The position numbers and the translations under genes are program-made. 32,000 nt of DNA from an uncultured Desulfatiglans sp. GTDB lineage: Bacteria > Desulfobacterota > DSM-4660 > Desulfatiglandales > Desulfatiglandaceae. The stretch is taken from positions 836,373 through 868,372 of the forward strand of contig LR026961.1 in assembly GCA_900498135.1 (NCBI GenBank), written 5' to 3'. How positions within the stretch are numbered: position 1 is the stretch's first letter; every line of letters starts with the position of its first letter. Positions 13,229-31,283 of this stretch are shown in pieces. Below the pieces are notes generated by a model, which was not told where the DNA came from, did not search any database, and saw nothing but the letters and a program-made list of their open reading frames with translations.

Positions 13229-13441
13229 GACGCCGTGCGTGCTCAGTCCCACCGCTTCGAGGCGGGTCCCGGTTCCTCCGCGCCTTTCGGTGCTCACTCC
13301 CACCCCTGCAGGGTGGATTTCAATTTGGCCAAGCTTTAGGAAATCAAGCGTTTGCGCGGAGGCGACCTGGCGGCCGCCGAACAGGCAAACGTGAAGATTG
13401 ACGCCGATATTGACCAAAAATGACCCTTTCCGAATGGAAAC
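13229..13441 (+). repeat. Modular intergenic repeat, locus D
   Basis: Has two GC-rich modules (gctcagtcccaccgcttcgaggcgggtcccggtt and gctcactcccacccctgcagggtgg). These are followed by the core aatcaagcgtttgcgcggaggcgacctggcggccgccgaacaggcaaacgtgaagattgacgccgatattgaccaaaaatgaccctttccgaatggaaac. A related 5' box (tccatccggaattgaggaa) sits further upstream at 13056-13074. Confidence 0.8.
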
Positions 13442-13472
13442 CCATCCCATGAATACGGATTGAGGCTTCTGC

Positions 13473-15287
13473 ATGGCACTTCAACGGCCCAAAGGCGGGT
13501 TCTGGGCAGGCACGCCCCCCTGGATCATTCTCGGGGTCCTGGTGATTCTGGCCCCGCTCTTCGTCTTCTTGACCCTTCAGACCATCCAGCGGCGGAACGA
13601 ACTGACGACCGAGCTTCTCCTGGAAAAGGGGGAAGCCCTGATCCGTTCCTTCGAGGCAGGGGCACGCACCGGTATGATGGGGATGCAATGGGGTGGAATG
13701 CAGGTCCAGCGACTGCTCGTGGAAACCGCCCGGCAGTCCGATATCCACTACCTGATGGTCACGGACGAAACGGGGCGCATCCTGGCCCACAGCGATATCG
13801 CGCGGATCGGGGAAACGTACGGAGCCGGGTTGGGCCTTGCCGGGATCGCCGCCTCTGAGAAACTCAACTGGCGCCGCTTGAGCCCTCCCGGAGAGGATTC
13901 CCCCGTCTTCGAGGTATTCCGCCCCTTTTCTCCCACACGGTCGGCCAGAGGGCACTTCATGCGGCGCGGCCCCGGGGGGAACGGTCTGCGGCATCCGGAT
14001 GCCCCCTCCACCGACTGGTGCCGGCTGCACCTGGAAGGCGGCGACCCCGCTCCCGGAAGCCGCCAGATCGTCTTTGTCGGACTCGACATGGGCCCCATCG
14101 AAGCCGCCAGACAGGACGACCTGCGGCACACGGTCCTCACGGCCGGCATCCTTCTCCTCATCGGGTTGACGGCGATGTCCCTGCTCTTTCTCGCGCAGGC
14201 CTACCGATCCACCCGAACCGCGTTGTCGAGCGTTCAGGCCTTCACCGGGCACCTCATCGAGCGGATGCCCGTCGGTCTCATAGCGGTCGACCCCGACGGC
14301 CAATTCACCTCCTTCAATCAAACTGCCGGGCGTATGATCGGAGTTCAGATCCGTGACATGCTCGGCAAACCTGCCCGGGAGCATCTCCCGAAGGTGCTGC
14401 TCGACGTCGTCGACGCCGTCGCCGAAACGCATCAGCCGATGGAACTGGAGGTGGCGCTCCCCGCAGGACAAAACGGGCCCCTGCCCTGCGACGTGATGGG
14501 AACCCTGCTTCGAAGAGACGATGGCACCCCCTTCGGGGTCCTGATCATTCTCAGGGACCTCTCGGAAATCCAGCACCTCAAACGGGAGGTCGCCAGGAGC
14601 CAGCGCCTCGCATCCGTCGGCAAACTGGCGGCCGGGGTCGCCCATGAGATCCGGAATCCGCTCAGCTCCATCAAAGGGTTCGCCACCTGGTTCAAACAAA
14701 GGCACCACGACGATCCGGCGGACCGCAAGACCGCGGACATCATGATCCAGGAGGTCGACCGTCTGAACCGCGTGATTTCCCAACTGCTGGAATTCGCCCG
14801 CCCGCCGGCCCTGCATCGGGAGCCGACCGAGATCGGGGCCTTGGTGCTCCGCTCGCTCGAAACGGTGCGCGATCAGGCGGAAAGGCGACGAATCCGCATC
14901 GAAACGGACCTGGAACCGACGGACCGCCCCGTCAACATCGACCGTGACCGCATCAGGCAAGTGCTCCTGAATCTGTATCTGAACGCCATGGAGGCGATGG
15001 AGGAACAGGGGATGATGCGCGTCTCCGTCAAGCGCGAAGAGGCATCCGGGACCCTTGCCATCAGGATTGCCGACACCGGCAAGGGGATCGCGGAGCAGGA
15101 TCTGCAGAACATTTTCGATCCTTATTTCACGACCAAACCGTCCGGCACCGGCCTGGGATTGGCCATTGTGCACACCATTGTCGAGGCCCATGGGGGTGAA
15201 ACGCTGGTGCAAAGCAGCTTGGGGGCCGGGACCACCGTGACGGTACGTCTGCCTGCAGATGCGCACGAGAAAGGCTCGCCGGGCTGA
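13473..15287 (+). CDS. Membrane sensor histidine kinase (periplasmic sensor, PAS, HisKA, HATPase_c)
   Basis: 604-aa ORF with two TM segments flanking a sensor region and a PAS-like segment (LIERMPVGLIAVDPDGQFTSFNQ). H-box AAGVAHEIRNPLSSIKGF, N-box LLNLYLNAMEAM, G-boxes DTGKGI and GTGLGLAIV. Confidence 0.9.
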   Translation: MALQRPKGGFWAGTPPWIILGVLVILAPLFVFLTLQTIQRRNELTTELLLEKGEALIRSFEAGARTGMMGMQWGGMQVQRLLVETARQSDIHYLMVTDETGRILAHSDIARIGETYGAGLGLAGIAASEKLNWRRLSPPGEDSPVFEVFRPFSPTRSARGHFMRRGPGGNGLRHPDAPSTDWCRLHLEGGDPAPGSRQIVFVGLDMGPIEAARQDDLRHTVLTAGILLLIGLTAMSLLFLAQAYRSTRTALSSVQAFTGHLIERMPVGLIAVDPDGQFTSFNQTAGRMIGVQIRDMLGKPAREHLPKVLLDVVDAVAETHQPMELEVALPAGQNGPLPCDVMGTLLRRDDGTPFGVLIILRDLSEIQHLKREVARSQRLASVGKLAAGVAHEIRNPLSSIKGFATWFKQRHHDDPADRKTADIMIQEVDRLNRVISQLLEFARPPALHREPTEIGALVLRSLETVRDQAERRRIRIETDLEPTDRPVNIDRDRIRQVLLNLYLNAMEAMEEQGMMRVSVKREEASGTLAIRIADTGKGIAEQDLQNIFDPYFTTKPSGTGLGLAIVHTIVEAHGGETLVQSSLGAGTTVTVRLPADAHEKGSPG

Positions 15288-15404
15288 GTGCACGCAGCCG
15301 CCGGTCGATGCTCGACGGCCGAGCCGGCCGCCTGAACTCCGGCCGGAATACGCCGCCCGTGACAGCGGGGGCAGGACAAAGCCATCATCGAAAGGAGTCA
15401 TGGG

Positions 15405-16781
15405 GTGCAGCAGAAAGGGACCATCCTGATCGTCGACGATGATACGGCCCATCGGACGATGCTCTCGACATTGAGCGAAGGATGGGGATATACCGTCGTC
15501 GAAGCCGCCGACGGCGAGGAGGCCATCGCCAAGGCCCGTGAGCAGGCCTTCGATCTGATCCTGATGGATATCCGCATGCTCAAGGTCTCGGGCCTCGAGG
15601 CCCTGGGCGCCATCAAGGCGTTCAATCCCGCCATCCCCATCATCGTCATGACGGCCTACGCATCGGTCGAAACGGCCGTGAGCGCCCTGAAGCAGGGCGC
15701 GTACGATTATCTCACGAAGCCGCTCGATTTCGACGAACTGCAGCTGACCATGGAAAGGGCGATGGAGCATCTGCGCCTGAAGGAAGAAAACAAGCGGCTG
15801 AAGGAGACATTGGGTGAAACCTTCGATGCGCGGCGGATCATCGGCTCGAGCCCCGCGATGGTCAAATTGCTCCAGACGGTTGCGAGGGTCGCGCCTTCCG
15901 AGGCGACGGTCCTGATCAGCGGGGAATCCGGCACGGGAAAAGAACTCATTGCCGCCGCCATCCATTTCAACAGCCCCCGGAAGGACGGACCCTTCGTCAA
16001 GATGAACTGCGCAGCCCTGACCGAGACCCTCCTCGAATCGGAGTTGTTCGGTCATGAAAAGGGCGCCTTCACCGGCGCTCACCGCCTCAAGGAAGGGAAG
16101 TTCCGGCAGGCGCACGGCGGAAGCCTCTTTCTCGACGAGGTCGGCGAAATGCCCCTCTCCATGCAGGCGAAGCTCCTCCGGGTGCTGCAGGAAAGGGAGC
16201 TTGTCCGTGTAGGCGGCGAACAGGTGCTGAAGGTCGACGTCCGCGTCATCGCCGCCACCAATCGGGACCTGCCCGAGTCCGTCCGGGACGGCCGCTTCAG
16301 GGAAGACCTGTACTACCGGCTGAACGTGGTCGGGCTGGAGGTCCCTCCCCTGAGGGAAAGAAGGGAGGACATTCCCTTGCTGGCGGAGCATTTCCTGAAG
16401 CAATTTGCGGAAAAGAACCGCAAGACCCTCAAGGGATTGACCCCTCAGGCGATGGACCGGCTGCTCCGCTACCCTTGGCCGGGCAATGTGCGCGAACTGA
16501 TGAACGTCATCGAACGCGCGGTGGTTCTGGCACGCAGCGAGGTTCTGGATACCGAAGACCTCCTCCTGGAACGCGGGGCCGATCGTGTGGAAAACTCAGC
16601 CGGGCCGGCGGACACCATGGAGGTGGGGCCGGCGGACATTCCGCTTGAAGAAGTCGAACGGGTGACCATCCTGAAGACCCTTGAATCGGCGGGTGGAAAC
16701 AAGAGCGAAGCGGCCCGGCGCCTTGGAATCACCCGGCGGACACTGCATCAGAAACTGAAGAAATACGGGGTTATGCCGTAA
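15405..16781 (+). CDS. Sigma54-dependent response regulator (NtrC/AtoC/ZraR family)
   Basis: 458-aa ORF with a GTG start 7 nt after AAAGGAG. Receiver domain (ILIVDDD ... LILMDIRM). AAA+ sigma54-interaction domain (GESGTGKE, GAFTGA, DEVGEM). C-terminal Fis-type HTH (AARRLGITRRTLHQKLKKYG). Confidence 0.95.
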   Translation: MQQKGTILIVDDDTAHRTMLSTLSEGWGYTVVEAADGEEAIAKAREQAFDLILMDIRMLKVSGLEALGAIKAFNPAIPIIVMTAYASVETAVSALKQGAYDYLTKPLDFDELQLTMERAMEHLRLKEENKRLKETLGETFDARRIIGSSPAMVKLLQTVARVAPSEATVLISGESGTGKELIAAAIHFNSPRKDGPFVKMNCAALTETLLESELFGHEKGAFTGAHRLKEGKFRQAHGGSLFLDEVGEMPLSMQAKLLRVLQERELVRVGGEQVLKVDVRVIAATNRDLPESVRDGRFREDLYYRLNVVGLEVPPLRERREDIPLLAEHFLKQFAEKNRKTLKGLTPQAMDRLLRYPWPGNVRELMNVIERAVVLARSEVLDTEDLLLERGADRVENSAGPADTMEVGPADIPLEEVERVTILKTLESAGGNKSEAARRLGITRRTLHQKLKKYGVMP

Positions 16782-16862
16782 AGCCTGCCTCGCCGTGGAA
16801 ACCTCCTTGATCCGGCGGAGCGGCGGATCCTTTTCGAACGATCCTTCAGCTGAGAGGAACCC

Positions 16863-18599
16863 TTGCTGAAACGCCCGAAATTGAACTCTCTCCAGAAGAA
16901 AATCGCCGTTTTTCTGCTTCTGCCGCTGACGATCGCATTGCTCGGCCTGGGGTTTTTCGGTTTCTTTTTCGCAAAGGAAGTCATGCTGAACGAGTGGCGG
17001 GAGGCGGCCATCCTCAAGCTGCAGCGGGCCGCCCACCACATCGACATGCGCCTCCAGGCCCCCATCGATTGGATGGAGATGTTTCACCGCACGGGAAGGC
17101 TCGAGGACAACGACGCTCAGCAATGGATCCTCGATGAGCTGCGGCAGATGCCGGGCGTCCTGAATGTTGCACTGACCTGGCTGGACCCCCGGCACATGTC
17201 CGTACCCGGCTTCACGGGCCACGGCGGCATGATGGACCGGCAGCCAGGAAGCGGCATGAGCATGAGGATGATGCGTTTCGAGCAGGCCAGGATAGCGGAC
17301 GTCAGCCCTCCCACTTACAATGCGCTGACCGGTGAACAATCCGTCACCCTCACCTCGCAGCTGAACGACGAGAGGGGAGAAACGCTGGGGATCTTGACGG
17401 TCGCCATCAGCTTCGAATACATCATGCAGGACATCCTCAATCTGAGCTGGTGGCAAAGCGACACAGCCTATCTCGTCGACCGGCACGGGCGCATCCTCTC
17501 ACAGACCGTCCGGGCGCCCCTGACGCGCAAGCGGCTGGGAGAAACGGGCGACCCGCTCGAACTGGAGCTGCTCCTCGATATACAGAAAAATTCTCACGGC
17601 ACCATCCTCGGCCCGGGGCACCCGCCGGAGATGGTTTGGGGATATTACCACATCGAGGAGGCCCCCTGGACCATCGTCCTGTTTGCATCGGGGAAAAGAG
17701 TGCTTGCCCCGATCCTCACCTTCAGGCTCTACTATGGCATAGCAGCCCTCCTTTCGATCCTCGTCCTCATCGGATTCATCCGCTTCATGGTCGGCCGTTC
17801 GGTCAAGAGCATCGCCGAACTCTCCCGGGCAGCCGAAGGGGTGGCCGTCGGCGATTACCGGACTCTGGACGAGGCCGGATCCGACGAGATCGGCCAACTC
17901 GTTCGGAGCTTCAACACCATGGTGGAGGGCCTCAAGGAGCGGGACCTCATCGTGGACACCTTCGGGCGTTACATGGATCCGGACATTGCCAGGCAGCTCA
18001 TGCAGCGTCCGGAATCCCTAAGGATGGGAGGAGAAAAGCGGGAGGTGGCCATCCTCATGTCCGACCTGAGGCATTTTACGCCCATCTGTGAAACGCGCCG
18101 CCCCGAGGAGATCATCCGCATCCTCAACCGGTATCTTTCGGCCGTCATCCCGATCATCCAGGAACATCACGGCATCATCGTCGATTTTTTCGGGGATGGC
18201 ATCCTCGCCTTTTTCGATCCGCTAGACGGGCCCGTCGAGCCCTCCGCGCGGCATGCCGCCGCCTGTGCGGTCGAGATGCAGGAGGCTATGACTGCTTTGA
18301 ACCGCGATGCTTCCCGCCTCGGACTGCCGGAACTCCACATGGGCATCGGCCTGCACGCCGGAGAGGTCGTCGTCGGAAACATCGGGTCCGAGGCCCGCGC
18401 CAAATACGGGATCGTCGGGGCGCCGGTGAATCTCACCCAAAGGATCCAGTCCGAGGCCCTCCCCGGGCAGGTGGTCTGCTCCGATGCGATCGGCCGGTAC
18501 ATTTTCGCGGATCACCGGCCCGTCACCATGGTCGCCGTAAAACTGAAGGGGGTCACCAATCCGGTCAACGTGAGCGTCATCCACCAAGCAACATCTTGA
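16863..18599 (+). CDS. Membrane sensor class III adenylate/guanylate cyclase (extracytoplasmic sensor domain, HAMP, cyclase)
   Basis: 578-aa ORF with a TTG start after GAGAGGA. Two TM helices flank a roughly 250-aa sensor region. HAMP-like segment (SIAELSRAAEGVAVGDYRTLDEAGSDEIGQLVRSFNTMVEGL). Class III cyclase domain (REVAILMSDLRHFTP ... FGDGILAFF ... GLHAGEVVVGNIGSEARAKYGIVGAPVNLTQRIQS). Confidence 0.85.
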   Translation: MLKRPKLNSLQKKIAVFLLLPLTIALLGLGFFGFFFAKEVMLNEWREAAILKLQRAAHHIDMRLQAPIDWMEMFHRTGRLEDNDAQQWILDELRQMPGVLNVALTWLDPRHMSVPGFTGHGGMMDRQPGSGMSMRMMRFEQARIADVSPPTYNALTGEQSVTLTSQLNDERGETLGILTVAISFEYIMQDILNLSWWQSDTAYLVDRHGRILSQTVRAPLTRKRLGETGDPLELELLLDIQKNSHGTILGPGHPPEMVWGYYHIEEAPWTIVLFASGKRVLAPILTFRLYYGIAALLSILVLIGFIRFMVGRSVKSIAELSRAAEGVAVGDYRTLDEAGSDEIGQLVRSFNTMVEGLKERDLIVDTFGRYMDPDIARQLMQRPESLRMGGEKREVAILMSDLRHFTPICETRRPEEIIRILNRYLSAVIPIIQEHHGIIVDFFGDGILAFFDPLDGPVEPSARHAAACAVEMQEAMTALNRDASRLGLPELHMGIGLHAGEVVVGNIGSEARAKYGIVGAPVNLTQRIQSEALPGQVVCSDAIGRYIFADHRPVTMVAVKLKGVTNPVNVSVIHQATS

Positions 18600-18676
18600 C
18601 ACGGGTCGCGCAAAACGCTACGCTCCCCTGGCATCTATTTCCATCCAAGGCAGGCACTGGGAACGAGGCGGACCGA

Positions 18677-21600
18677 ATGCGAAACCTCTTGAGCAAGTGG
18701 CTCAAAATCTATCCCGACGAGTTCGGTCTGTTCATCTGGTCAACCCTGCTTCTTTTTCTGATTAGAAGCGGCAACGTCCTCTTCGACAATTTCGGCGAAA
18801 CCGCCTTCCTGAAACGCTTCGGCGTCGAATACCTTCCTGTCGTCTACATGATCAATTCCATCGCCACCTTTGTCCTCATGGGCATCGTGACGGGGATTAT
18901 GGTCAAGCTGCCGGGGAGCCGCCTGCTCGCCTACATGCAGCTCTTCTGCGGGCTCAGCGTCGCAGCGCTCAGACTGGTCATCCCCCTGGGCTTCGATTAC
19001 ATCTACCCGGTCTTCTTCATCTTGAAGGCTCAGTACGAGGTCCTGCTGGGGCTGGTCTTCTGGAACCTCGCGAACGACCTCTTCAACACCCGTCAATCGA
19101 AGCGTCTCTTTCCGCTCATTACCGCGGGGGGAGTCCTCGGCGGCGTGATCGGCAGCTTCGCGACCCCTTCTCTGGCCAAGGCCATCACCATCGACAACCT
19201 TCTCTGGATCTATCTGGCCATATCGGTGCTGGGGGCCTTCATGGTGCAGCGGATGGGGGTGCGCTTCCCCTCCATCCTGTTCATCGACAGCCCCGACCAG
19301 GAAAAGGGGAAGAAAAAGAAAGGCCGCAGTTCGCTGATCGAGGAGTTCAAAAAGGTCGGTCCGATGATCAAGGAATCGAAGCTGGTCAAGATCCTCGTGG
19401 TCCTGACGCTGATGCCCAACGTCGTCATCCCGATCATCAACTACCAGTTCAACTTCGCAGCGGATCAGCAGTTCGCCACCGAAAGCGGGATGCTCCTATT
19501 CTTCGGATATTTTCGAGGGGCGATGAACGTGATCAGCCTCGTCATCCTGCTCTTCGTAGGCCGAATCTACGGCCGGTGGGGGCTGCCGGTGGCGCTCATG
19601 TTCCATCCCTTCAACTATATTCTTGCGTTCCTGGCCTTCCTCCTCCGCTTCGACATCCTATCCGCCATGTACGCGCGTATTTCCACGACCGTCATCCGCA
19701 ACACCATCAACAACCCCGGGCGCGCCGTCCTGGTCGGACTCGTGCACCCGGCCTACCGCGCCGTCATCCGGCCCTTTCTCAGGGGCACGATCGTCCGAAT
19801 CGGCACCCTGGCAGGCTCCGGCATCATCATGCTCTGCGAGGGGCTGATCCATCCCCGCTTTCTGTCGGTCATAGCCTGTGCCTTCGTAGGCGTTTGGCTG
19901 TTTGCGACCTTCGTCCTCAAGCGGGATTACCCCAAAATCCTTCTGGACCTCATTTCGCGCAACATGCTCGACCTGAAATCCATCGAAGGCAAAGAGCTGA
20001 ACCAGATCTTCACCGACCGGAAGGTCCGCACGGAACTGACCGAGGCCTGCGCCTCCAGCCGGAACGACGATTGCCTCTGGTATGCCAGGCTTTTGAAATC
20101 CCTGGACGTGAGCGGCCTCGACGACGTCATCCTCTCGGCCCTGCCCCAACAGGATGAAAAAACCCGCATCGCCCTCCTCGCCATGCTGTCGCCCGAAGCC
20201 GGCGAGAAGGCCATTCCCGTCCTCGAGTCTCTTTCCGTCGAGGCGGGCCCCGAGCTCATGGCGGCGATTCTCCAGGCATCGAACCGGCTGCCGGCCGGAC
20301 TCTCGAGGGATTTCAATCTCAAGATCATCGACGCGCGGCAGGATCCCCTCATCAAGGCATGGGCCGTCGCGGGGCTCTATCCACAGGCGCCCTCCGACTA
20401 CGCATCGATCGTGGAGGATTGGTTCGCATCCGACCATCTCGAAGGAAAGAAGGCCGCCGCCATCGCCGCCGGCGGCTCGGGAGACGGAGCCTATCTTCCC
20501 CGGCTCCAAAAGATGCTCGCCGAGGAAGACGACCCGGCCTTGCTGGTCCTGGTACTCGAGGCCATCAGGAAGCTCGCCCCGGCCGACATCAACGCGCTGG
20601 TGGAGCCCTTCCTCGGTCATCAGGATGAAAACGTAAGGATGGCCGCCCTCCGGGCCTACGTGATCGCAGACGATACCGCCTCCCGGAGGGCCATCCGCCT
20701 GCTCGACGATCCATCCGATCTCATCCATGAATACGCCGCTGAAAAACTTCAGGAGGCCCCCTATCAAAGCGTCGAACTTTTCCTGGAATCCCTGACAGCA
20801 CCCAGCCGCCGGGTGCGGGAGGGGCTCTTCCGGGTGCTCGAGACACTCAATATCAAGGACCTCGACGTCATTCGCTTCGCCCGCAGCCAACTTCAGGAAG
20901 CTTATACCTGTCTGGTCGTGAAGGACGCGCTGTTGCAGCAGCCCGAATCCGAGCAAGGGCGGATGCTCGCCGACCATCTGGAGCAGAAGAAGGACCTCCT
21001 CGTCGAAAACATCATCCGGCTCCTCGCCGCTCAGGACACATCTGGACAGATGCGTTTGATCTGGCGGGGAATCTCCTCAACGAACAAGACCCAGCGATCC
21101 AACAGCATCGAGGCCCTCGACAGCCGCATCGATGCCTCGCTGTCGAGAATCCTGATGCCCCTGCTGGAAGGCCTCTCGGTCTCAGAAGCCCTCGAGACCG
21201 GACGGAAAAACTACTCCCTGCCGCGCTTCAACCCATCGAACCCGTCGGATCTATACCGCTATCTGCTTAGTTCGGGCGATTGGGTCAACGTGCTCTTCAC
21301 ACTGAGCCTAGTCGCCGCTCGAGAGACCCCCATCGTGGAGAAAGAACGTATCCAGGAACTGACCGAAGCGGACAACCCGTTCGTGCAGCAGATGGCGCAT
21401 CATACGCTGCGCCGCCTGGAAGGCACCGGATCTGAAAGGAAGGATGACATGGAAGAGGAAATCACCATCCCTGATAAGGTGCTGCGTCTCAAGGGGATCC
21501 AGATCTTCGAAGGCCTTTCCGTCAACGAACTGGCTGCCATCGCCTCCGTCACAGAAGAAATCGTCGTCGAACCTGGCGAGATCGTCATCCGGGAAGGCGA

Positions 21601-21913
21601 ATCGGGCGACACCCTGTACCTCATCATCCAAGGATGCGTCGCGGTCCTCAAGGGATATGCCGAAAAAGAAGAAGGCAAAGAAGGGGTCGAACTCGCGCAA
21701 ATCAGCGATGGGGACTACTTTGGTGAAATGGCCCTTTTCGAGGACGCCCCACGCTCAGCCACCATTCGCACCCTGGACAAGAGCCGGCTGCTGGTCCTTC
21801 ACAAGCGTGAATTCACCGAGATCGTCCGGGAATACCCGCAGATCGCGCTGCACATCTGCAGGGCCCTGAGCCAGCGGATCAGGGAGCTGCACAGCAAGGT
21901 CAGGACAGAATAA
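18677..21913 (+). CDS. Multidomain membrane protein: TLC/ATP:ADP-antiporter-like (MFS-type) transporter domain, HEAT-like repeats, C-terminal cyclic-nucleotide-binding domain
   Basis: I chose the start at ATG 18677 (MRNLLSKWLKIYPDEF), 6 nt after GAGGCG. The track start at 18596 is a TTG overlapping the cyclase stop. The N-terminal ~450 aa are polytopic and resemble the TLC family. The middle ~450 aa are alpha-helical repeats (HEAT-like). The C-terminal CAP-type cNMP-binding domain (about 21482-21900) contains GDYFGEMALFEDAPRSATIRT. Confidence 0.8.
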   Translation: MRNLLSKWLKIYPDEFGLFIWSTLLLFLIRSGNVLFDNFGETAFLKRFGVEYLPVVYMINSIATFVLMGIVTGIMVKLPGSRLLAYMQLFCGLSVAALRLVIPLGFDYIYPVFFILKAQYEVLLGLVFWNLANDLFNTRQSKRLFPLITAGGVLGGVIGSFATPSLAKAITIDNLLWIYLAISVLGAFMVQRMGVRFPSILFIDSPDQEKGKKKKGRSSLIEEFKKVGPMIKESKLVKILVVLTLMPNVVIPIINYQFNFAADQQFATESGMLLFFGYFRGAMNVISLVILLFVGRIYGRWGLPVALMFHPFNYILAFLAFLLRFDILSAMYARISTTVIRNTINNPGRAVLVGLVHPAYRAVIRPFLRGTIVRIGTLAGSGIIMLCEGLIHPRFLSVIACAFVGVWLFATFVLKRDYPKILLDLISRNMLDLKSIEGKELNQIFTDRKVRTELTEACASSRNDDCLWYARLLKSLDVSGLDDVILSALPQQDEKTRIALLAMLSPEAGEKAIPVLESLSVEAGPELMAAILQASNRLPAGLSRDFNLKIIDARQDPLIKAWAVAGLYPQAPSDYASIVEDWFASDHLEGKKAAAIAAGGSGDGAYLPRLQKMLAEEDDPALLVLVLEAIRKLAPADINALVEPFLGHQDENVRMAALRAYVIADDTASRRAIRLLDDPSDLIHEYAAEKLQEAPYQSVELFLESLTAPSRRVREGLFRVLETLNIKDLDVIRFARSQLQEAYTCLVVKDALLQQPESEQGRMLADHLEQKKDLLVENIIRLLAAQDTSGQMRLIWRGISSTNKTQRSNSIEALDSRIDASLSRILMPLLEGLSVSEALETGRKNYSLPRFNPSNPSDLYRYLLSSGDWVNVLFTLSLVAARETPIVEKERIQELTEADNPFVQQMAHHTLRRLEGTGSERKDDMEEEITIPDKVLRLKGIQIFEGLSVNELAAIASVTEEIVVEPGEIVIREGESGDTLYLIIQGCVAVLKGYAEKEEGKEGVELAQISDGDYFGEMALFEDAPRSATIRTLDKSRLLVLHKREFTEIVREYPQIALHICRALSQRIRELHSKVRTE

Positions 21914-22040: not shown

Positions 22041-23102
22041 TCATCGGGGATTGTTTTCCCAGACCGTCGTCGAATAGTCATAGCCGAGGGTGCAGGTGCG
22101 GCAGATATCCAGGTGGCCCTCGAAAAAGCGCTCCAGCATGGTGCGCCTGGCATTGGAGTTCCAGATCTCCCGCCAACCTCTCTCCCTGAGATTCCCGAAG
22201 GCGTATTCTCCATCGTAATCGATGCAGCAGGGCACCACCGCACCGTCCGAGAGCACGAATCCCTGAAACAGCAGGCGGCAGACGGCCGTCTCCCGGTAGG
22301 TCTTATACCCCTCCTGCCGCCGCGAGTACTTTCCCTGCCCGGCGGCCGCGAACCGGCCGAAGGCTCCGGACGTTTCATTCCGGCCCCCGAAGCTCTCGAA
22401 ACTGGGCTTCTTGAACTTGATCCGATCGACCCCGAGCCCCCGAATGAACCGCTTCAGGGCCGCCTCCTTCGCTTCGTTGTATGGGAACATGACCGTCTGC
22501 ACCTGGATGAGGGGGGTGGACCGCTTCTGCCGGTTCCTTTCGCGGCGCAGGGCCTCGATGCCTCTCAGGATCTTTTCGAGATCCGCCCCGCGGCGGTAGA
22601 TCCCCAGATCGTCCTGCGTCATCCCGTCAAGGGAGATCGAAATCTTGTCGAGGCCGCTGCGGACGACCGCCTCGGCCTTCTCCTCCAGGAGCATCCCGTT
22701 GGTGGCGAAATAGGTGTAAATCCCCCTGGTTTTCAGGCTTGCCACGATGTCGAAGACGGACCCGGACAAAAGCGGTTCCCCCATCAGATGGAGGCAGGCG
22801 TAATGCATGGCAGGGTTGTCCGCGGCGATCCCTTCCACCCATTCGAGCGGCATCTCGGTATATCCCCGCCGCAGGTGGTGGGTCGAGCAGAGTGGACAAT
22901 TCAGGTTGCACCGGCTGGTGCTCTCGATCTGGAAGATGGTAGGCCGAAAGGCCATAACCAGCCTCACTTTTTCTGGCAGTGGCAGTTCTTTGAAAACGGC
23001 CTCCGCCCGGCTGTACGCCTCGTCCTGCCGGGGCCCAGCCATCGCGGCCGCAAGCCGCCCCTCGTCAGGCTGCAGCGCCTGCTGCAAAGACCCCGATCTC
23101 AT
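22041..23102 (-). CDS. Radical SAM enzyme with C-terminal SPASM/twitch-like Cys-rich domain
   Basis: Cluster motif ESTSRCNLNCPLCS. The C-terminal auxiliary-cluster pattern is C-x16-CC (CRLLFQGFVLSDGAVVPCCIDYDG..FGNL...EIWNS) plus CRTC. The start is uncertain. ATG 23102 has an AGAGGA ribosome-binding site and overlaps the upstream gene by 38 nt. The track start is 23135, and other candidates are 23042 and 22955. Confidence 0.8.
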   Translation of the reverse strand: MRSGSLQQALQPDEGRLAAAMAGPRQDEAYSRAEAVFKELPLPEKVRLVMAFRPTIFQIESTSRCNLNCPLCSTHHLRRGYTEMPLEWVEGIAADNPAMHYACLHLMGEPLLSGSVFDIVASLKTRGIYTYFATNGMLLEEKAEAVVRSGLDKISISLDGMTQDDLGIYRRGADLEKILRGIEALRRERNRQKRSTPLIQVQTVMFPYNEAKEAALKRFIRGLGVDRIKFKKPSFESFGGRNETSGAFGRFAAAGQGKYSRRQEGYKTYRETAVCRLLFQGFVLSDGAVVPCCIDYDGEYAFGNLRERGWREIWNSNARRTMLERFFEGHLDICRTCTLGYDYSTTVWENNPR

Positions 23103-25374
23103 GCCCTGTCCTCTCGTTGATATAGGTGGCGGCAAGCCGCATGTCGTTTCGCGCCGTCAAACGGAGCGCAGGCTCATTGTCCATCCGGATCGTGACATAG
23201 ATCTTCCACCCGGGAGAACGGGCCACCAACCCCTTGAGCAGCCGGTCCCCAAGCCCCATGCCGCGGTATTCGGGCCGCACCGCCGTATACCCCCTTTCGA
23301 GATAGCCGTCGAGGTTCAGCCCCGTCTTTTCTTCGATCCGGCGCCGATACCTCTCCAAAGGCCGCTTGTGCGTCATGGTGGCCACCACCCGGTCCCCTTC
23401 GACGGCGTAGCCGATCAGCCAGGCCTTTTCCAGATTCTCCCGGATCCAGCTGAGCCCCACTTCGCCCCCCAGTTCGACCAGGCGGCAAATACCATCCAGG
23501 ATGTTTTCGGGAACATCCGCCGGACATTCGAAAAAAAGCTGAATCCGCGACCCTTTGTCATATCGAGCCAGATCACCCGGCGACACCTTCCAATTCAGGA
23601 CCGCATCGAGCCCATAACGCGAGACATAGAGCATCAGGTATTCCCGAATGCGCAGATAGTACCAGAAAGGGTGACCGTACAGATCCTTCAGGCGGTAAGT
23701 CTGCGCCTCTTCGAGAAAGGTCGTGAGGGCCGCCCCGTCCATACCCTCCCGGCAGACGAAGGGGTGATCGGAGCCGAAGGGACTCGGGCTTTCGCCGATT
23801 TCGGATATGGCATAGTCCTCCGGCCGTTGCATGATGCGGGAGTACTTGAGGAGCACGAAACGAAAGAAGATCGAAGAATGGATCCTGTCAATGTTTTCCT
23901 CGAGGAAACGCAGCGTCTCGTCGGCCTCCTCACGCGTCTCCCCCGGGAAGCCGAAAATGACCGTGGCGTGGTTCCATATCCCCGCCCTGGAGGCGTCGCC
24001 AAGCACCCTCAGGGTTTCCGGCAGCCGGGTTCCCTTGTTCATGAGCTTCAAAATGCGCGGGTGCCCCGTCTCGAGCCCCCACCGCACCAGCCGGACCCCG
24101 GCCCGGGCCAGGAGATCCAGCCGATCGGCCGTAAAAGCGCCGACCGGCTTGCACCAGAGGGAGATGTCGAAGCGTAGACCGCGATCGAGGATCCCGCGGG
24201 CGACCTCCGCCAGGTAGGGGGCCGTGAGACAGTCGTCATTGACAGTGAAGCAGGGGGTTCCGTGCCGGGAGTGCAGTTCGGCCAGATGGCCGACCGCCCG
24301 TTCCGGCGGTACGGTCATAAAGCGGCGGTTGTCGTAACGCGAGCAGAAGGCGCACTTCCCCCAGTAACACCCTTCCGAGAAACGGATCGGCAGGATGGGA
24401 ACAGGCGACAGGTAGCTTCGGAGGTCGAGATCCGTGAAATCGGGTGTGGGCAGCTCCGGCAAGGGCTCATGCCCGCAGATCGGGGTCTCGATCCATTTCC
24501 CCCGACGCGAAAAGCCTAAATTGGGGGCATCATCCCAAGGCCGGCCCGATAACAGGCGATCCAGGAGGAAGGCCAGAGGCCGTTCTCCATCCTGCAGCAC
24601 CACGCTGTGCGCAAATTCAGGGAGGTAGTCCGGCTCCTTCTCGAAGGCGTCCCGAAGGCGCAGGATATGGCGGCCTCCGAGTGTAACGTGGACGTCCGGG
24701 AAACGCCGTTTGAGAAATCTGGCCAGCGTCAGACCCCCGGGGGCCTGATAGGATGTGGATATGGATATCCCCACCAGGCGAGGGGCCTCCCGCGCCACCA
24801 GGTCAGGGATGGTCCGCTCGTAGAAATCCAGGAAAGGGTTGGCACGACGGTCATCGCAGAAGCGGATCATCCCCGCGTAATCCTCGATCCCGGGATGCTG
24901 GAAGGTATTGAAGGTGAAGGAGGTCGGAAACCATGAGAGCGACGCCATCCGCAAGAGCCGGTAGAGATTGGTCTGAGCCCGGATGCAGCGCTCGGGGTCG
25001 AAAAACCCCGCCTCCTGCCTAAGATCCTCTATAAACCGGCGCACCTGAGCGGCGCGGTCCGTCCACACATCACGACGATCCCGAATATCCCGGAACAGGG
25101 CCTGCTGCGGGCCGGACATGCCTTCCGCCGGTCTTTCCAAGATCTGCGCCAGCATAGCGTCCAACCGCTCCGGCATCAGCAGGTACTCCAGAAAAAAATC
25201 GAGGCTGACATCGGTATGCCGCACGCCAAATCCGGCCTTACGCAAATAGGCCGTCAGGGCGGGGAGGGCCAGGAAAGGGGTCACAGGCGTCCAAACAGGT
25301 GGAAACATCAGGAGGATGTCGCAAACGCTTTTGATTTGCTTCAGATCACGCATTCTTTTAGAATAGCGAGCCAT
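23065..25374 (-). CDS. Cobalamin(B12)-binding-domain radical SAM enzyme fused to a C-terminal GNAT N-acetyltransferase domain
   Basis: 769-aa ORF. The N-terminus (ILLMFPPVWTPVTPFLALPALTAYLRKAGFGVRHTDVSLDFF) is typical of class B radical SAM enzymes. The radical SAM motif is GCYWGKCAFCS. The last ~150 aa are GNAT-like with motif A RPEYRGMGLGDRLLKGL. Confidence 0.8.
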   Translation of the reverse strand: MARYSKRMRDLKQIKSVCDILLMFPPVWTPVTPFLALPALTAYLRKAGFGVRHTDVSLDFFLEYLLMPERLDAMLAQILERPAEGMSGPQQALFRDIRDRRDVWTDRAAQVRRFIEDLRQEAGFFDPERCIRAQTNLYRLLRMASLSWFPTSFTFNTFQHPGIEDYAGMIRFCDDRRANPFLDFYERTIPDLVAREAPRLVGISISTSYQAPGGLTLARFLKRRFPDVHVTLGGRHILRLRDAFEKEPDYLPEFAHSVVLQDGERPLAFLLDRLLSGRPWDDAPNLGFSRRGKWIETPICGHEPLPELPTPDFTDLDLRSYLSPVPILPIRFSEGCYWGKCAFCSRYDNRRFMTVPPERAVGHLAELHSRHGTPCFTVNDDCLTAPYLAEVARGILDRGLRFDISLWCKPVGAFTADRLDLLARAGVRLVRWGLETGHPRILKLMNKGTRLPETLRVLGDASRAGIWNHATVIFGFPGETREEADETLRFLEENIDRIHSSIFFRFVLLKYSRIMQRPEDYAISEIGESPSPFGSDHPFVCREGMDGAALTTFLEEAQTYRLKDLYGHPFWYYLRIREYLMLYVSRYGLDAVLNWKVSPGDLARYDKGSRIQLFFECPADVPENILDGICRLVELGGEVGLSWIRENLEKAWLIGYAVEGDRVVATMTHKRPLERYRRRIEEKTGLNLDGYLERGYTAVRPEYRGMGLGDRLLKGLVARSPGWKIYVTIRMDNEPALRLTARNDMRLAATYINERTGHEIGVFAAGAAA

Positions 25375-25471
25375 CGCATTTAATCAAGGCTTTTTTGGGT
25401 GCATCCGAAGACGGCGATCCCTGCCCACGGCTCTTTGGGCCGCCTCGATCGACGATGGCCAAAAGGGGCGT

Positions 25472-26362
25472 ATGAACATAGGTATCCTGAGTGCCAGAGA
25501 TCGCAACTACCATCCGAACCGAAGGCTCCTCGAGGCCTCCCGTGAACGCGGACACGAAGCCCATCTCATCCATCCGAAGGACTGCCGCTCCCTCCTTGCG
25601 CGTGGAGGTATGACGATCGAAGGCCCCGGCATCAGGCCGGAGGTGCTTCTGCCCCGCATCGGGGCCACCATCAACGATTATGCCCTCGCCCTGATCAGGC
25701 ATTTTGAACTCTCGGGAACGCAACTCATCAACGGCTTTCCGGCCATCGCCCTCACTCGCGACAAATTCCTAGGGCTGCAGACCCTCGCGGCGGGCGGCAT
25801 CCCTGTGCCCCGGTCGATACTGGTCAGCAATCGCGGGAACCTCGAACGGGCGGTCGAAGACCTCGGCGGCTGTCCAGTCGTGGTCAAAACCCTCCGAAGC
25901 CGCCAGGGCGAAGGGGTCTTTCTGCTCGAACATCCTTCGGACGGCGCAGAACTCGTAGAAAGGTTCGATGCGCGAAAGCGCGGATTGCTGGTCCAGGAAT
26001 ACATTCCGCCGGCCGGCAGGATGGACGTGCGTCTCTTTGTCCTGGGAGATCAGATCCCCGCAGCCGCAGCCCTCACCCCCCAGGAGGGGGATTTCCGCGC
26101 CAACATCCATCAGAACGGCCATGCACGCATCTTTGCCCCGGAGCCCGCCCTGGTCGATCTCGCTATCAAGGCCAAAAGGGCGCTCGGGCTGAACATCGCC
26201 GGCGTGGACGTCATCATCGATCGGAACGGCGGCCCATGGGTGATCGAGGTGAACTATTCGCCGGGGTTCAAAGGGCTCGAGGCGGTTTCGGGGCTGGACA
26301 TTGCAGCTGAGATCATCCATTATGTCGAACGGGTGCATGCACGGAAGAACGGAGACCGCTGA
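25472..26362 (+). CDS. RimK-family ATP-grasp ligase (alpha-L-glutamate ligase-like)
   Basis: 296-aa ORF collinear with E. coli RimK from memory: MNIGILSARD..., PRIGATI, ARDKF, VVVKTLRSRQGEGVFL, LVQEYI, DVRLFVLGD, EGDFRANIHQNG, AGVDVI, VIEVNYSPGFKGLE. Confidence 0.9.
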   Translation: MNIGILSARDRNYHPNRRLLEASRERGHEAHLIHPKDCRSLLARGGMTIEGPGIRPEVLLPRIGATINDYALALIRHFELSGTQLINGFPAIALTRDKFLGLQTLAAGGIPVPRSILVSNRGNLERAVEDLGGCPVVVKTLRSRQGEGVFLLEHPSDGAELVERFDARKRGLLVQEYIPPAGRMDVRLFVLGDQIPAAAALTPQEGDFRANIHQNGHARIFAPEPALVDLAIKAKRALGLNIAGVDVIIDRNGGPWVIEVNYSPGFKGLEAVSGLDIAAEIIHYVERVHARKNGDR

Positions 26363-27360
26363 TGAAAATCGCCTTTCTGATGGATCGCCTGGACTCCATC
26401 GACCCCGTCAACGAGACCACCAGCCACCTCATGTACGAATGCAACGAGCGCGGCCACACGGTCTATTTCCTCGAGCCCCACGATGTCTACGTCCGGCAGA
26501 ATGCGGTCCTGGCCCGTATGCGCAATGTCACGGTCGAACCGGGTCTCTCGATCCGCCGCTACTGGAGGGCGCTCATCCGGTGCATGAAAAAGGACGAACT
26601 CATCTTCGAAAGCGTGACGGAACTCGACGCCCTCTTTCTCCGCAAGAACCCGCCCCTGGTCTACCAGACCATGGAGTTCCTGGCGCCGGTCAACAACCGG
26701 GTCTTCATGATCAACAGCACCCGCGGCCAGATCCTTGCCAACAGCAAGCTTTACACGCTGAATTTCCCGGATATCATCCCACAGACGCACATCTCCCGTG
26801 ACCCCGTCCGCCTCAAAAAGATCATCGACGACTTCGGCGGCGCCATGGTCGTCAAACCCCTGCAGCGGTTCGGCGGGGAGGGTGTCATCAAGGTCAGCGT
26901 CCGCGACCGCGAAAACCTGATCTCCCTCATCAACTACTATGTCCGGACCTATCAGGCATACCCCAACCGGGAACCGATCATGGTCCAGGAATATCTGGAT
27001 ATCGTCAAGACCGAAGGGGATGTGCGCATCCTGCTCTTGAACGGTGAAATTCTCGGGGCGATGCGCCGAAAACCCCGCCTGGGGGATTTCAGAACGAACA
27101 TTCACGCGGGGGCAAGCGCCCATAAACACGATATCACCCCGCGCGAAAGGGACATCTGTGCTACAATCAGCGAAAGGCTCAGGAGGGACGGGCTCTACTT
27201 CGTGGGGATCGACATCATCGGCGACAAGCTCATCGAGGTCAACTGTGTCAGCCCGGGTGGAATCCCGCGCATCAACCGCCTCAACAACGTCCGTCTGGAG
27301 AGGAATGTGATCGATTTTATCGAAACCGAAGTCAGCAAGATGAAACAGGACCACCCGTAG
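26362..27360 (+). CDS. Glutathione synthetase (GshB)-family ATP-grasp ligase
   Basis: 332-aa ORF collinear with E. coli GshB from memory: MKIAFLMDRLDSI..., LRKNPP, VVKPLQRFGGEGVI, GDVRILLLNGE, FRTNIHAGA, LYFVGIDIIGDKLIEVNCVSPGGI. The ATG shares one base with the RimK-like stop (TGATG at 26360-26364). Confidence 0.85.
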   Translation: MKIAFLMDRLDSIDPVNETTSHLMYECNERGHTVYFLEPHDVYVRQNAVLARMRNVTVEPGLSIRRYWRALIRCMKKDELIFESVTELDALFLRKNPPLVYQTMEFLAPVNNRVFMINSTRGQILANSKLYTLNFPDIIPQTHISRDPVRLKKIIDDFGGAMVVKPLQRFGGEGVIKVSVRDRENLISLINYYVRTYQAYPNREPIMVQEYLDIVKTEGDVRILLLNGEILGAMRRKPRLGDFRTNIHAGASAHKHDITPRERDICATISERLRRDGLYFVGIDIIGDKLIEVNCVSPGGIPRINRLNNVRLERNVIDFIETEVSKMKQDHP

Positions 27361-27439
27361 GAAACGGACAACCCATGCGGTGCAGCAGGGAAATCCGTTT
27401 ACCCGGCAAACCACTTTCGGAAGAGAAAGGACCACCGAC

Positions 27440-29167
27440 ATGAAAAACGTCCATTGTTCCAAGAACCTGACAGGTCTGGTGCTCATTCTTCTGCTGGTCG
27501 GCTTTTGCACACTCCCACCCATCTTCACCTCGCCGGCTTCCGCACGCGACATCCTGAAAATAGGACTCCTCGAGGAACCCAAGACGCTCAACATCTGGAT
27601 GGCGAGCGACACGTGGTCCAGCAAGGTGCTCTCTCAAATATATCAACCTCTATACATCCGCGAGCCGGAGAACCTGGATCTGATCCCCTGGCTTGCCGAA
27701 AGCGATCCCGTTTACAACGAGGCAGAACTCTCCTACACCGTGACCCTCAGACCGGCCAAATGGTCAGACGGCACCAAAGTCACCGCTGAGGACGTGATAT
27801 TTACGGGTGAGTTCATCCAGGAATTCAAGATCCCCCGCTATGCCTCCTATTTCAAGTTCGTCAAGAAGATAGAGGCGTTGGATCAAAGGACCGTCCGGTA
27901 TCACCTCGAGAAGCCCCAGGCCATCTTTCTCAGCCGGACCCTGACCACGCCGATCGTCCAGAAAAGGCAATGGATGCCCATCGTGAACGACATCCGGGGG
28001 AAAGACAAACCGCTGGCCGAGATTATCAATGTCAAGATCGATCAGCCGATCGGATGCGGACCTTTCGTCCTGAAGGAGTGGCAGCAGGGGGCCTATATCT
28101 TCATGGCAACCAATCCCGACTTTTTCGGCCGGAACCTCACCATTGCCGACCACAAACTCGGTCCGTACATCGACGGAATCATCTTCAAAGTTTTCGGCAC
28201 ATCGGATGCCGCGATCCTCGCGCTCAAGAAGGGCACGATAGACATGTTCTGGTGGGGGATCCAGGCGGGTTATATCGAGGACCTCAAGAGGCAGAAGACG
28301 GTGGAGATCCACACGAACGACAAAAGTGCACTCTATTACCTGGGGTTCAATGTCAGGAAGGCCCCTTTCAGCGATCCCGCCCTACGCCGGGCCATCGCTA
28401 CGCTGATCGACAAAGACTTCATCATCACACGGATCCTGCAAGGATACGCCATAGAACTGGACTCCGTCGTTCCTCCCGGCAACCGTTTCTGGCACTGCCC
28501 GAATGTCCCGTCCTACGGCAAGGGGCTGTCAAGAAATGAGCGGATCAAAGCGGCTTACGACATCCTCAAAAACGCGGGATACACATGGGACATCCCCCCG
28601 GTCGATCCGAAGGGGAAGATCAGCGCCGCCAAAGGCCTGCGCCTGCCCGAAGGCAAACCCATGGAGGGCTTCACGATCCTGACGCCTCCGGCCGACTACG
28701 ATCCGAACCGGGCGATGACCGGCATGATCGTCCAGGAGTGGCTGCGTCAGATAGGGATGCCCGCTACTTCGAGGCCTATGGCGTTCGGCGCGCTCATCGA
28801 CCAGGTCAAGAGCCGGCACGATTTCGATGCCTTCGTCCTCGGCTACGGGAAGCTTTCCCTCGACCCGGACTACATCCGGAACTTTTTCTCATCCAGCAAC
28901 GATAAGTCGAAAGGGAGCAACATGAGCGGATACCGCAACCCCGAGTTCGATCGGATCGCCGAGGAATCCGCCGCCACCATGGACGCGAAGAAGCGTCAGG
29001 ACCTCGTTTGGAAGATGCAAAGCATCATCCTGGAGGATGTCCCCTATCTCCCCATTTACAACCCGAAGGTTGTCGAGGCGGTGCGCAACGACCACTTCAA
29101 GGGATGGATCGATATGATCGAAGGCATCGGGAACCACTGGTCTTTCTGCCTCGTCGAACCCCGTTGA
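27440..29167 (+). CDS. ABC transporter substrate-binding protein, family 5 (peptide/nickel, OppA/DppA-like)
   Basis: I moved the start to ATG 27440 (MKNVHCSKNLTGLVLILLLVGF...ASA|RD signal peptide), about 9 nt after AGAGAAAGGA. Length and sequence pattern are typical of SBP family 5. Confidence 0.9.
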   Translation: MKNVHCSKNLTGLVLILLLVGFCTLPPIFTSPASARDILKIGLLEEPKTLNIWMASDTWSSKVLSQIYQPLYIREPENLDLIPWLAESDPVYNEAELSYTVTLRPAKWSDGTKVTAEDVIFTGEFIQEFKIPRYASYFKFVKKIEALDQRTVRYHLEKPQAIFLSRTLTTPIVQKRQWMPIVNDIRGKDKPLAEIINVKIDQPIGCGPFVLKEWQQGAYIFMATNPDFFGRNLTIADHKLGPYIDGIIFKVFGTSDAAILALKKGTIDMFWWGIQAGYIEDLKRQKTVEIHTNDKSALYYLGFNVRKAPFSDPALRRAIATLIDKDFIITRILQGYAIELDSVVPPGNRFWHCPNVPSYGKGLSRNERIKAAYDILKNAGYTWDIPPVDPKGKISAAKGLRLPEGKPMEGFTILTPPADYDPNRAMTGMIVQEWLRQIGMPATSRPMAFGALIDQVKSRHDFDAFVLGYGKLSLDPDYIRNFFSSSNDKSKGSNMSGYRNPEFDRIAEESAATMDAKKRQDLVWKMQSIILEDVPYLPIYNPKVVEAVRNDHFKGWIDMIEGIGNHWSFCLVEPR

Positions 29168-29281
29168 GTGCGCTTCGACCCTTTGAGTGAAGTCGATCTG
29201 TTTCAAAGTGGATGCGGCGGATTGCGCAGCCGCAGCCGGTGAAAAACCCGCGCCCTGCTGCGCAGCCGTTAGGCGAACAGC

Positions 29282-29307
29282 AAAACATCTCGGGAAACGG
29301 ATGTTTT
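29282..29307 (+). terminator. Intra-operon hairpin after the binding-protein gene (possible attenuator or mRNA-stabilising stem-loop)
   Basis: aaaacatc (29282-29289) pairs with gatgtttt (29300-29307), an 8-bp stem with a 10-nt loop. It lies in the 172-nt gap between the SBP and first permease genes. There is no extended U-tract beyond the stem. Confidence 0.3.
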
Positions 29308-29339
29308 AAGGCGAAAACCCGAGCAAATCCGGATCGAAC

Positions 29340-30317: not shown

Positions 30318-30349
30318 ACCGGGACCCGTTCCGCAAGGATGGAATACGC

Positions 30350-31282: not shown

Positions 31283-31283
31283 G

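Follow-up and report, generated by a model that had tools for sequence, protein, structure and literature searches.

How a membrane carrier could come under the control of a cyclic nucleotide made by a neighboring gene product is the question raised by a 32,000-nucleotide stretch of DNA (hereafter, the window; G+C content ~60%) from an uncultured Desulfatiglans sp. (contig LR026961.1, positions 836,373 to 868,372). In the window, a gene for a membrane sensor class III nucleotidyl cyclase directly precedes a gene for a large protein with three parts: a membrane domain resembling the ATP/ADP translocases (NTT/TLC family), a region of HEAT-like repeats, and a carboxy terminal cyclic-nucleotide-binding domain (cNBD). 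It is proposed here, with moderate confidence, that the cyclic nucleoside monophosphate (cNMP) produced by linked cyclases regulates the NTT-like carrier. The identity of the nucleotide and of the cargo are separate matters and are addressed in turn.

Proteins of this architecture have been described. According to Major, Embley, and Williams 2017 (Genome Biol Evol, PMC5381601), NTT-HEAT and NTT-HEAT-cNBD fusions constitute a bacterial clade that is monophyletic, widely distributed, and represented in Deltaproteobacteria, with transfer into oomycetes. Members occur in cyanobacteria, Chlamydia trachomatis, and oomycete pathogens, and the authors give their function as unknown. Split versions, in which a cNBD gene follows an NTT-HEAT gene, are also reported, and the cNBD is suggested to bind cAMP from an adenylate cyclase to tune ATP uptake (PMC5381601). 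An earlier note on this DNA had described the architecture as present in databases and knew of no functional characterization; the architecture was indeed published in 2017, and a full-text literature search found no later functional work on NTT-HEAT-cNBD proteins. The central idea of that note, that the product of the cyclase is the ligand of the neighboring cNBD, restates the 2017 speculation. What appears to be new is the statistical linkage of cyclases to these genes, the non-adenylate-cyclase residue pairs of the linked enzymes, and a neighborhood of ligase, GNAT, FGE-like, and Dpp genes, none of which was found in the literature searched.

Architecture of the Two Proteins

The two genes and the domains of the second are as follows.

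16863..18599, + strand: membrane sensor class III nucleotidyl cyclase (TTG start, 578 aa)
18600..18676, + strand: spacer from the cyclase stop codon to the next ATG (77 nt), with the Shine-Dalgarno-like GGAACGAGG
18677..19957, + strand: NTT/TLC-like 12-helix membrane domain, aa 1-427 (Pfam, profile search, Foldseek, AlphaFold2 helices)
19988..21418, + strand: HEAT-like alpha-helical repeat region, aa 438-914, ~24 helices, ~480 aa (HEAT_2, AlphaFold2 model)
21467..21913, + strand: CAP-type cNBD, aa 931-1078 (cNMP_binding, PF00027, 74 bits)

The cyclase harbors two hydropathic transmembrane segments (aa 14-32 and 292-310), which would place the intervening ~260 residues (aa 33-291) in the periplasm. 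The stretch between them contains a dCache_1 match (aa 148-272; 41.2 bits, E 2e-10) that falls slightly short of the gathering score of 45, and PF02743 is listed by precomputed Pfam for some orthologues. A HAMP domain (aa 308-358, 41 bits) and a Guanylate_cyc match (aa 392-545, 66 bits; catalytic domain given as aa 392-570) complete the protein, whose stop codon ends at 18599. Pfam and hydropathy thus agree with the earlier description of a membrane cyclase with an extracytoplasmic sensor and HAMP that ends at this position. When aligned with Cya2 and CyaC, the metal-binding Asp401 and Asp445 as well as Asn523 and Arg527 are present, and the catalytic domain, which appears complete, is predicted from these residues to be competent.

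The second open reading frame (ORF) is open from 18596 and employs an ATG at 18677, preceded by GGAACGAGG, to encode 1078 aa ending at 21913. This start is consistent with the N-termini of 69 full-length homologues, and the 77-nt gap previously reported is confirmed. A word-indexed search retrieves 938 homologues at E <= 1e-5, the best reaching E = 0. The best 120, with identities of 54-97%, are full-length proteins, each of which has PF03219 and/or PF13646 plus PF00027; with aa 1-930 as the query, 283 representative clusters are found at E <= 1e-30, many of ~1070 aa. Database names of the homologues include "Npt1/Npt2 family nucleotide transporter", "ATP/ADP translocase", and "cyclic nucleotide-binding domain-containing protein". 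The protein shares with the published clade its length class and the three-domain order that characterizes it.

For comparison of gene neighborhoods by tblastn, 32 genome loci, 80 metagenome loci, and the two closest relatives were assembled, yielding 108 distinct loci after removal of duplicates. The genome loci come from Desulfobacterales, Desulfatiglandales, Deferrisomatales, and Nitrospinaceae metagenome-assembled genomes, and the metagenome relatives, taken from a diverse-alignment scan, span 44-97% identity. In ten of the loci (L019, L023, L073, L104, L105, L109-L112, and L114), the frame is split into two adjacent genes (e.g., 922 aa + 158 aa in L019). These splits match the published state of an NTT-HEAT gene followed by a separate cNBD gene, and some may be frameshift artifacts.

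The N-terminal domain matches TLC (PF03219; TCDB 2.A.12) with 34.2 bits against a cut-off of 21, although the match is partial and covers positions 136-370 of the 491 in the model; a match to MFS_1 stays under threshold. A single-sequence phmmer search of the domain against PDB sequences gives no match, whereas a profile of 18 N-terminal domains retrieves only Arabidopsis AtNTT1 (6.4e-5) and Chlamydia pneumoniae NTT1 (CpNTT1, 6.4e-4), with which it has in common the motif FW..AN...[AS]K[RK][FL][YF]PL. The AlphaFold2 model, built from a 70-sequence alignment (mean predicted local distance difference test score 79.7), has 12 long helices at aa 13-427, paired shorter helices at 438-914, and a beta-roll with C-terminal helices at 931-1077; its predicted TM-score (pTM) of 0.46 makes the domain packing and inter-domain geometry unreliable. 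In a Foldseek search of the PDB with this model, AtNTT1 (9J3M/9J3L) ranks first, with a target-normalized TM-score of 0.70-0.73 and a root-mean-square deviation of 3.8-5.3 Å over ~470 columns. CpNTT1 (9J3N) is also matched, with a TM-score of 0.64, and the other matches (SthK, SLC9C1, PKA-R, PKG, and CRP) arise via the cNBD.

Because sequence profile and fold agree, the earlier recognition of a TLC-like domain stands, and its assignment as an NTT/TLC-like carrier domain homologous to ATP/ADP translocases is supported. The likeness to AtNTT1 and CpNTT1 thus extends over the 12-helix fold (TM-score 0.64-0.73) and the motif, in shorter form FW..AN...K[RK]..PL. In contrast to the present protein, the canonical NTTs have neither HEAT repeats nor a cNBD, and they serve plastids and obligate intracellular bacteria rather than free-living anaerobes. 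Invariant in the membrane domain are the Lys and Arg residues K46, R47, K117, R139, K142, R143, R334, and R374, together with Q119, Q140, N248, H310, N313, and Y314. Such basic and polar residues could fit an anionic substrate, either a nucleotide or a glutamyl or acidic peptide.

The repeat region, estimated at about 450 aa in the earlier note, extends over ~480 aa in the model and contains a HEAT_2 match (aa 608-664; 30.9 bits against 27.7). In the cNBD, the motif GDYFGEMALFEDAPRSATIRT occupies aa 1012-1032 (nt 21710-21772) of the beta-roll and includes the phosphate-binding cassette FGEMALFEDAPRSAT. The pattern FGEMAL..R[STA]A[TS] is retained in 23/23 related loci with a complete protein, and G1016, E1017, R1026, and A1028 are invariant in 70 sequences. 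The closest PDB sequence matches of the domain are PKA-R, PKG, SthK, and CRP. By these residues the cassette is intact and conserved; its loss had been named in the earlier note as a ground for abandoning the idea of a cNMP-gated module.

The 12 helices place both protein termini on the same side of the membrane. According to the positive-inside rule, the Lys-rich loop at aa 196-235 would be cytoplasmic, such that the HEAT repeats and cNBD probably face the compartment in which the cyclase product is released.

Base-Specifying Residues and the Identity of the Nucleotide

In the window cyclase, Asp441 (nt 18183-18185) and Gly516 (nt 18408-18410) occupy the two base-specifying positions. The earlier note had proposed to distinguish Lys/Asp from Glu/Cys at these positions; the enzyme has neither, and cAMP cannot be assumed as its product. 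The pair typical of adenylate cyclases, Lys with Asp or Thr, is likewise not the one found. The closest solved structures to the catalytic domain are those of Cya2 from Synechocystis PCC 6803 (2W01, E 1e-41) and a Cya2-derived engineered enzyme (6FHT). Cya2 is a proven guanylate cyclase in which Glu488 and Gly562 confer base specificity, helped by a Lys and a Tyr, and the E488K substitution by itself converts it into an adenylate cyclase (PMC6005667, PMC5995499, PMC4215837). The window enzyme shares with Cya2 the metal-binding Asp residues, the Asn and Arg, the second-position Gly, and the Lys-Tyr-Gly segment (K514, Y515, and G516). It differs in having Asp in place of Glu488 and in its sensor, which is dCache-like with HAMP rather than CHASE2.

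The Asp-Gly pair is invariant in the best 120 cyclase homologues, at 50-100% identity, which indicates a selected feature of a subfamily rather than decay; the pipeline label on these homologues is "adenylate cyclase". By alignment, the window cyclase falls among the Cya2-like class III enzymes, in a subfamily in which Asp-Gly is conserved. The product of an Asp-Gly enzyme is not readable from sequence, yet the acidic residue argues against canonical ATP recognition. The presence of Asp-Gly instead of Lys-Asp/Thr makes cAMP a less likely product than cGMP or than a mixed or different cNMP.

The same tendency is seen in the cyclases at the other NTT loci. Among 48 aligned matches, a few of which come from duplicate loci, the metal-binding Asp pair and Arg are present in 48/48 and the Asn in 47/48. 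The specificity pairs are Gln/Ala (18), Glu/Gly (15), Asp/Gly (6), Asp/Ser (2), Asp/Arg (2), Glu/Ala (1), and Gln/Ser (1). Lys pairs (Lys/Thr or Lys/Asp) occur in only 3/48, two of them in one locus outside the cluster described below. The 15 Glu/Gly cyclases, which are cluster-linked, are identical to the Cya2 signature, including the Lys and Tyr. Judged by these residues, NTT-linked cyclases are systematically not adenylate-cyclase-like, and about a third carry a guanylate-cyclase signature.

The Gln-Ala type has a GDEIE motif and, in both examples examined (L001 and L007), a MASE10 membrane N-terminus. It is found at L001, L007, L027, L029, L037, L040, L041, L044, L050, L073, L083, L091, L100, L101, L112, and L113. 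Several loci hold two cyclases of different types.

Judged by the cassettes of PKA, PKG, CNG, and MloK1, the R-[S/T]-A cassette of the cNBD would suit either cAMP or cGMP, and in related loci with a complete protein no correlation is seen between the cassette residues and the type of the neighboring cyclase.

Proposed Mechanism and Genomic Linkage

In the proposed mechanism, a periplasmic ligand would be sensed by the dCache-like domain of a homodimeric cyclase in the inner membrane, and the signal would be relayed via HAMP, as the domain architecture implies. The cyclase would then form a cNMP, which is probably not cAMP in view of the specificity pair and the Cya2 precedent. This cNMP would bind the C-terminal cNBD of the 1078-aa protein, a step suggested by the cassette and by genomic linkage. 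The HEAT solenoid may finally pass the resulting change to the cytoplasmic face of the carrier, such that transport is switched or tuned by analogy to SLC9C1 and SthK. The sperm Na+/H+ exchanger SLC9C1 and the SthK and MloK1 channels likewise carry a cytoplasmic cNBD at the C-terminus, which sets the activity of their membrane transport domain, and they are the best functional precedent for a cNMP-regulated secondary transporter. However, they employ an NhaA fold with a voltage sensor, or a 6-TM channel, and have no HEAT linker; the likeness is one of logic only.

The main alternative holds that the cNBD reads a cell-wide cNMP pool of many cyclases, and that the adjacency in the window reflects shared kinase/sigma-54 regulation or a chance rearrangement. 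Of the loci with enough flank, 18/49 have a class III cyclase no more than 4 kb upstream of the NTT gene, and a cyclase is present in 10/17 loci covered from -4 to +9.5 kb. Among the fully covered loci, it is found in 10/14 that have the conserved cluster versus 0/3 that do not. Within the flanks, which total 1.33 Mb from the 108 distinct loci, 43 class III cyclase genes are counted against 11 histidine kinase genes. This approximately fourfold excess corresponds to 3.2 cyclases per 100 kb, which is far over any plausible genome-wide density; in bacterial genomes, kinases usually outnumber cyclases. The cyclase positions are also conserved, either immediately ahead of the FGE-like or NTT gene or immediately behind the last Dpp ATPase gene (DppF), across Desulfobacterales, Desulfatiglandales, and metagenomic relatives. 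Furthermore, the NTT-HEAT-cNBD protein holds the only called cNMP-binding domain of the cluster, although a few loci encode a protein with GAF that may act as another receptor. These observations speak against a cell-wide pool.

Other observations weigh against regulation by linked cyclases. About 30-40% of the well-covered NTT loci have no cyclase, and in some there are two, of different types. Tested reciprocally, the linkage is weak: an NTT-HEAT-cNBD gene is nearby in only 1/6 informative contigs that carry cyclase orthologues of 50-53% identity. In the positive contig (L121), it lies 0.9 kb downstream of the cyclase with a DUF2284 gene between. In four others (L116, L118, L119, and L120), the orthologue resides amid genes for multicopper oxidase, OEP, YHS, HMA, P-type ATPase, and CusB/RND proteins. 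The sixth (L117) has a kinase, a sigma-54 regulator, an Asp-Gly cyclase, HMA, and a CopA-like ATPase, with no NTT gene. A seventh contig (L122) holds the regulator, the cyclase, and DUF2284, and ends too near to judge NTT linkage. Since in the lineage of the window the kinase and sigma-54 regulator accompany the cyclase, as they do in L117 and, in part, in L122, its adjacency to the NTT gene may stem from a local rearrangement. The cluster in the window is itself a rearranged version of the commoner arrangement and lacks the FGE-like gene that is usually present. Three cyclase subfamilies with different sensors fill the cluster position, which implies that the nucleotide may differ between lineages. 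Finally, no characterized class III cyclase with Asp at the Glu/Lys position and no experiment on any NTT-HEAT-cNBD family member were found in the literature, and the arrangement of domains in the structural model is unreliable, as noted above.

On balance, the linkage of cyclases to NTT genes is real yet facultative in both directions, and the direct 77-nt juxtaposition is particular to the close lineage of the window, in which the 97%- and 90%-identical relatives (L033 and L035) have the same gene order. The co-occurrence expected in the earlier note is thus borne out as a strong enrichment beside homologues, but not as an obligate pairing. A cell-wide pool as the source of the ligand is judged rather unlikely, and regulation by linked cyclases is retained as the preferred explanation.

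The surroundings of the Asp-Gly cyclase orthologues are of interest in their own right. In L121 (9755-10375, -) and L122 (3263-3913, -), the gene directly after the Asp-Gly cyclase is an opposite-strand DUF2284 gene, predicted to be metal-binding, and Metal_resist is also among the genes around the orthologues in L116-L120. The sensor of the Asp-Gly cyclases may respond to metal or envelope stress.

The Conserved Cluster and the Cargo

The earlier note regarded the cyclase and its neighbor as a self-contained module. Rather, the pair is embedded in a conserved cluster of ATP-grasp ligase, GNAT/radical-SAM, and Dpp importer genes, and it follows a kinase and a sigma-54 regulator. This cluster, together with the non-adenylate-cyclase sensor cyclase, sets the present locus apart from the published account of the clade, in which neighborhoods were not analyzed past the cNBD gene and cAMP was assumed. 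In the window, the cluster spans 22041-32000 and comprises the following genes.

22041..23135, - strand: radical SAM/SPASM protein, convergent with the NTT gene (Pfam)
23065..25374, - strand: B12-binding radical SAM enzyme fused to a C-terminal GNAT acetyltransferase (Pfam)
25472..26362, + strand: RimK-family alpha-L-glutamate ligase, ATP-grasp (Pfam; TIGR00768, 198 bits versus 143)
26362..27360, + strand: glutathione-synthetase-like ATP-grasp ligase (Pfam GSH-S_N and GSH-S_ATP)
27380..32000, + strand: Dpp/Opp-type ABC importer (Pfam, tblastn, gene table of L033)

The importer consists of SBP_bac_5 (27380-29167), a permease (29340-30317), a second permease (~30389-31282), and an ATPase that starts at 31284 and is cut by the window end. 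The glutathione-synthetase-like ligase scores 267 bits against the GshB equivalog, for which the cut-off is 272.

Elsewhere, a commoner order is found. On the opposite strand are X380, a RimK-like gene, and GNAT, with or without the B12-binding radical SAM gene. The forward strand carries a cyclase, an FGE-like gene (encoding a short FGE-sulfatase-like protein), NTT-HEAT-cNBD, a GshB-like gene, SBP5, and DppBCDF, at times followed by another cyclase. The cluster is exemplified by L003, L004, L007, L011, L037, L040, L041, L050, and L107, among others. An FGE-like gene is directly upstream of the NTT gene in 46/78 loci, a GshB-like gene is directly downstream in 44/77, and a ligase, GNAT, X380, or radical SAM gene occurs within 1.6 kb downstream in 57/77. 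GNAT, single or fused, recurs as a neighbor of the NTT gene. Accessory cluster genes encode N-formylglutamate amidohydrolase, a histidine-ammonia-lyase-family enzyme, and a Ser/Thr kinase with GAF. By tblastn, both the FGE-like and the X380 genes are missing from the window.

Two conserved proteins, X380 (~375-380 aa) and X806 (776-806 aa), have no Pfam, NCBIfam, or PDB sequence match, aside from a weak GAF_2 match in X806. X806-type proteins adjoin Glu-Gly (Cya2-like) cyclases in L022 (3206-5626), L030 (3197-5545), and L031 (4618-6948), and could be a further cNMP-binding or cNMP-degrading component.

The theme of the cluster is glutamate and peptide chemistry rather than nucleotide metabolism, which bears on the cargo of the carrier and suggests an undescribed glutamate- or peptide-related pathway. 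The conserved neighbors suggest an anionic glutamate- or peptide-related metabolite as the cargo at least as strongly as ATP/ADP. They also bear on a second alternative, proposed by Major et al. 2017 (PMC5381601), in which the protein is a cAMP-tuned exchanger of ATP/ADP or other nucleotides and the cNBD matches nucleotide import to the energy state. Homology and fold likeness to AtNTT1 and CpNTT1 speak for such an exchanger, and the invariant Lys and Arg residues of the membrane domain would suit its anionic cargo. However, the N-terminal domain is only ~14-15% identical to canonical NTTs, and the bacteria that carry the gene, being free-living and sulfate-reducer-like, have no host cytosol from which to take nucleotides. 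In addition, the linked cyclases do not have the Lys pair of adenylate cyclases, and the conserved neighbors are peptide ligases and a peptide importer instead of enzymes of nucleotide metabolism. A cAMP-tuned nucleotide exchanger is accordingly deemed improbable. A transport-dead NTT-like domain, with the protein serving as a membrane-anchored, cNMP-controlled HEAT scaffold or transceptor for the cluster enzymes, is the least probable of the alternatives and very unlikely: HEAT repeats are typical protein-protein interaction modules (PMC5381601), the ~480-aa solenoid is conserved as well as the membrane domain, and the TLC match is partial, but the membrane domain is the most conserved part and keeps dozens of invariant polar or charged intrahelical residues at 28-46% overall identity, as in a working substrate site.

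Regulation of an NTT-like carrier by the cNMP of linked cyclases thus remains the favored explanation, and it can be given a more specific form. The cluster cyclases (Glu-Gly, Asp-Gly, and Gln-Ala) would make cGMP or another non-cAMP cNMP, which would directly gate the NTT carrier via a HEAT lever, and the cargo would be a glutamate- or peptide-type metabolite of the ligase/GNAT/Dpp cluster. Taken with all of its parts, this version is tentative and, at present, unlikely. If gating by cGMP were true, the protein would be the first cGMP-gated bacterial secondary transporter and would provide a first function for the NTT-HEAT proteins of cyanobacteria, Chlamydiae, and oomycetes. Provided that the Cya2-like signature is borne out, bacterial cGMP signaling, which is still rare, would gain a defined effector, and a second cNMP-controlled secondary transporter, after SLC9C1, would be at hand. 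Should the product be cAMP and the cargo ATP, the locus would merely confirm the published guess. The linked sensor cyclase is a concrete experimental handle on the widespread NTT-HEAT(-cNBD) family.

Other Genes and Features of the Window

Two further genes precede the cyclase on the same strand.

13473..15287, + strand: sensor histidine kinase, ZraS-like (sCache_3_2, PAS, HisKA, and HATPase_c; Pfam)
15405..16781, + strand: sigma-54-dependent response regulator (Response_reg, Sigma54_activat, and HTH_8; Pfam)

The kinase scores 429 bits against the NCBIfam ZraS model, under the cut-off of 479. The kinase, regulator, cyclase, and NTT genes form a same-strand series, separated by spacers of 117, 81, and 77 nt that contain no predicted terminator. 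Scans of the window for sigma-70 promoters and terminators are at background, with none between the cyclase and NTT genes. A sigma-54 scan (TGGCAC-N5-TTGCW, <=3 mismatches) yields 106 matches versus 110 expected, which is the chance level, and no convincing site is present in the spacers 16782-16862 or 18600-18676. The sole site with properly placed GG and GC, TGGCCTTGAATTTGCT at 13172-13187, is ~285 nt upstream of the kinase ATG within a 530-nt intergenic region; it is sigma-54-promoter-like and constitutes a weak lead.

Downstream of the NTT gene, the real start of the radical SAM/SPASM ORF (22041..23135) is probably ~36 nt inside, since the protein is called as 352 aa in L033 and L035. It has maturase-like NCBIfam matches, each under its cut-off, and the B12-binding radical SAM/GNAT protein resembles a RiPP C-methyltransferase (NCBIfam). 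Rfam and tRNA scans of the window give no match.

An antisense ORF of 1019 aa (13344-16403, -) runs across the kinase and regulator genes without any Pfam match and is rejected as a high-G+C artifact; it misleads gene calling based on length. At 4001-5000, the G+C content falls to 0.42 versus ~0.60 elsewhere, possibly marking a foreign insert. An ORF in this stretch (4074-4883, -) partially matches the 2-oxoacid dehydrogenase acyltransferase family.

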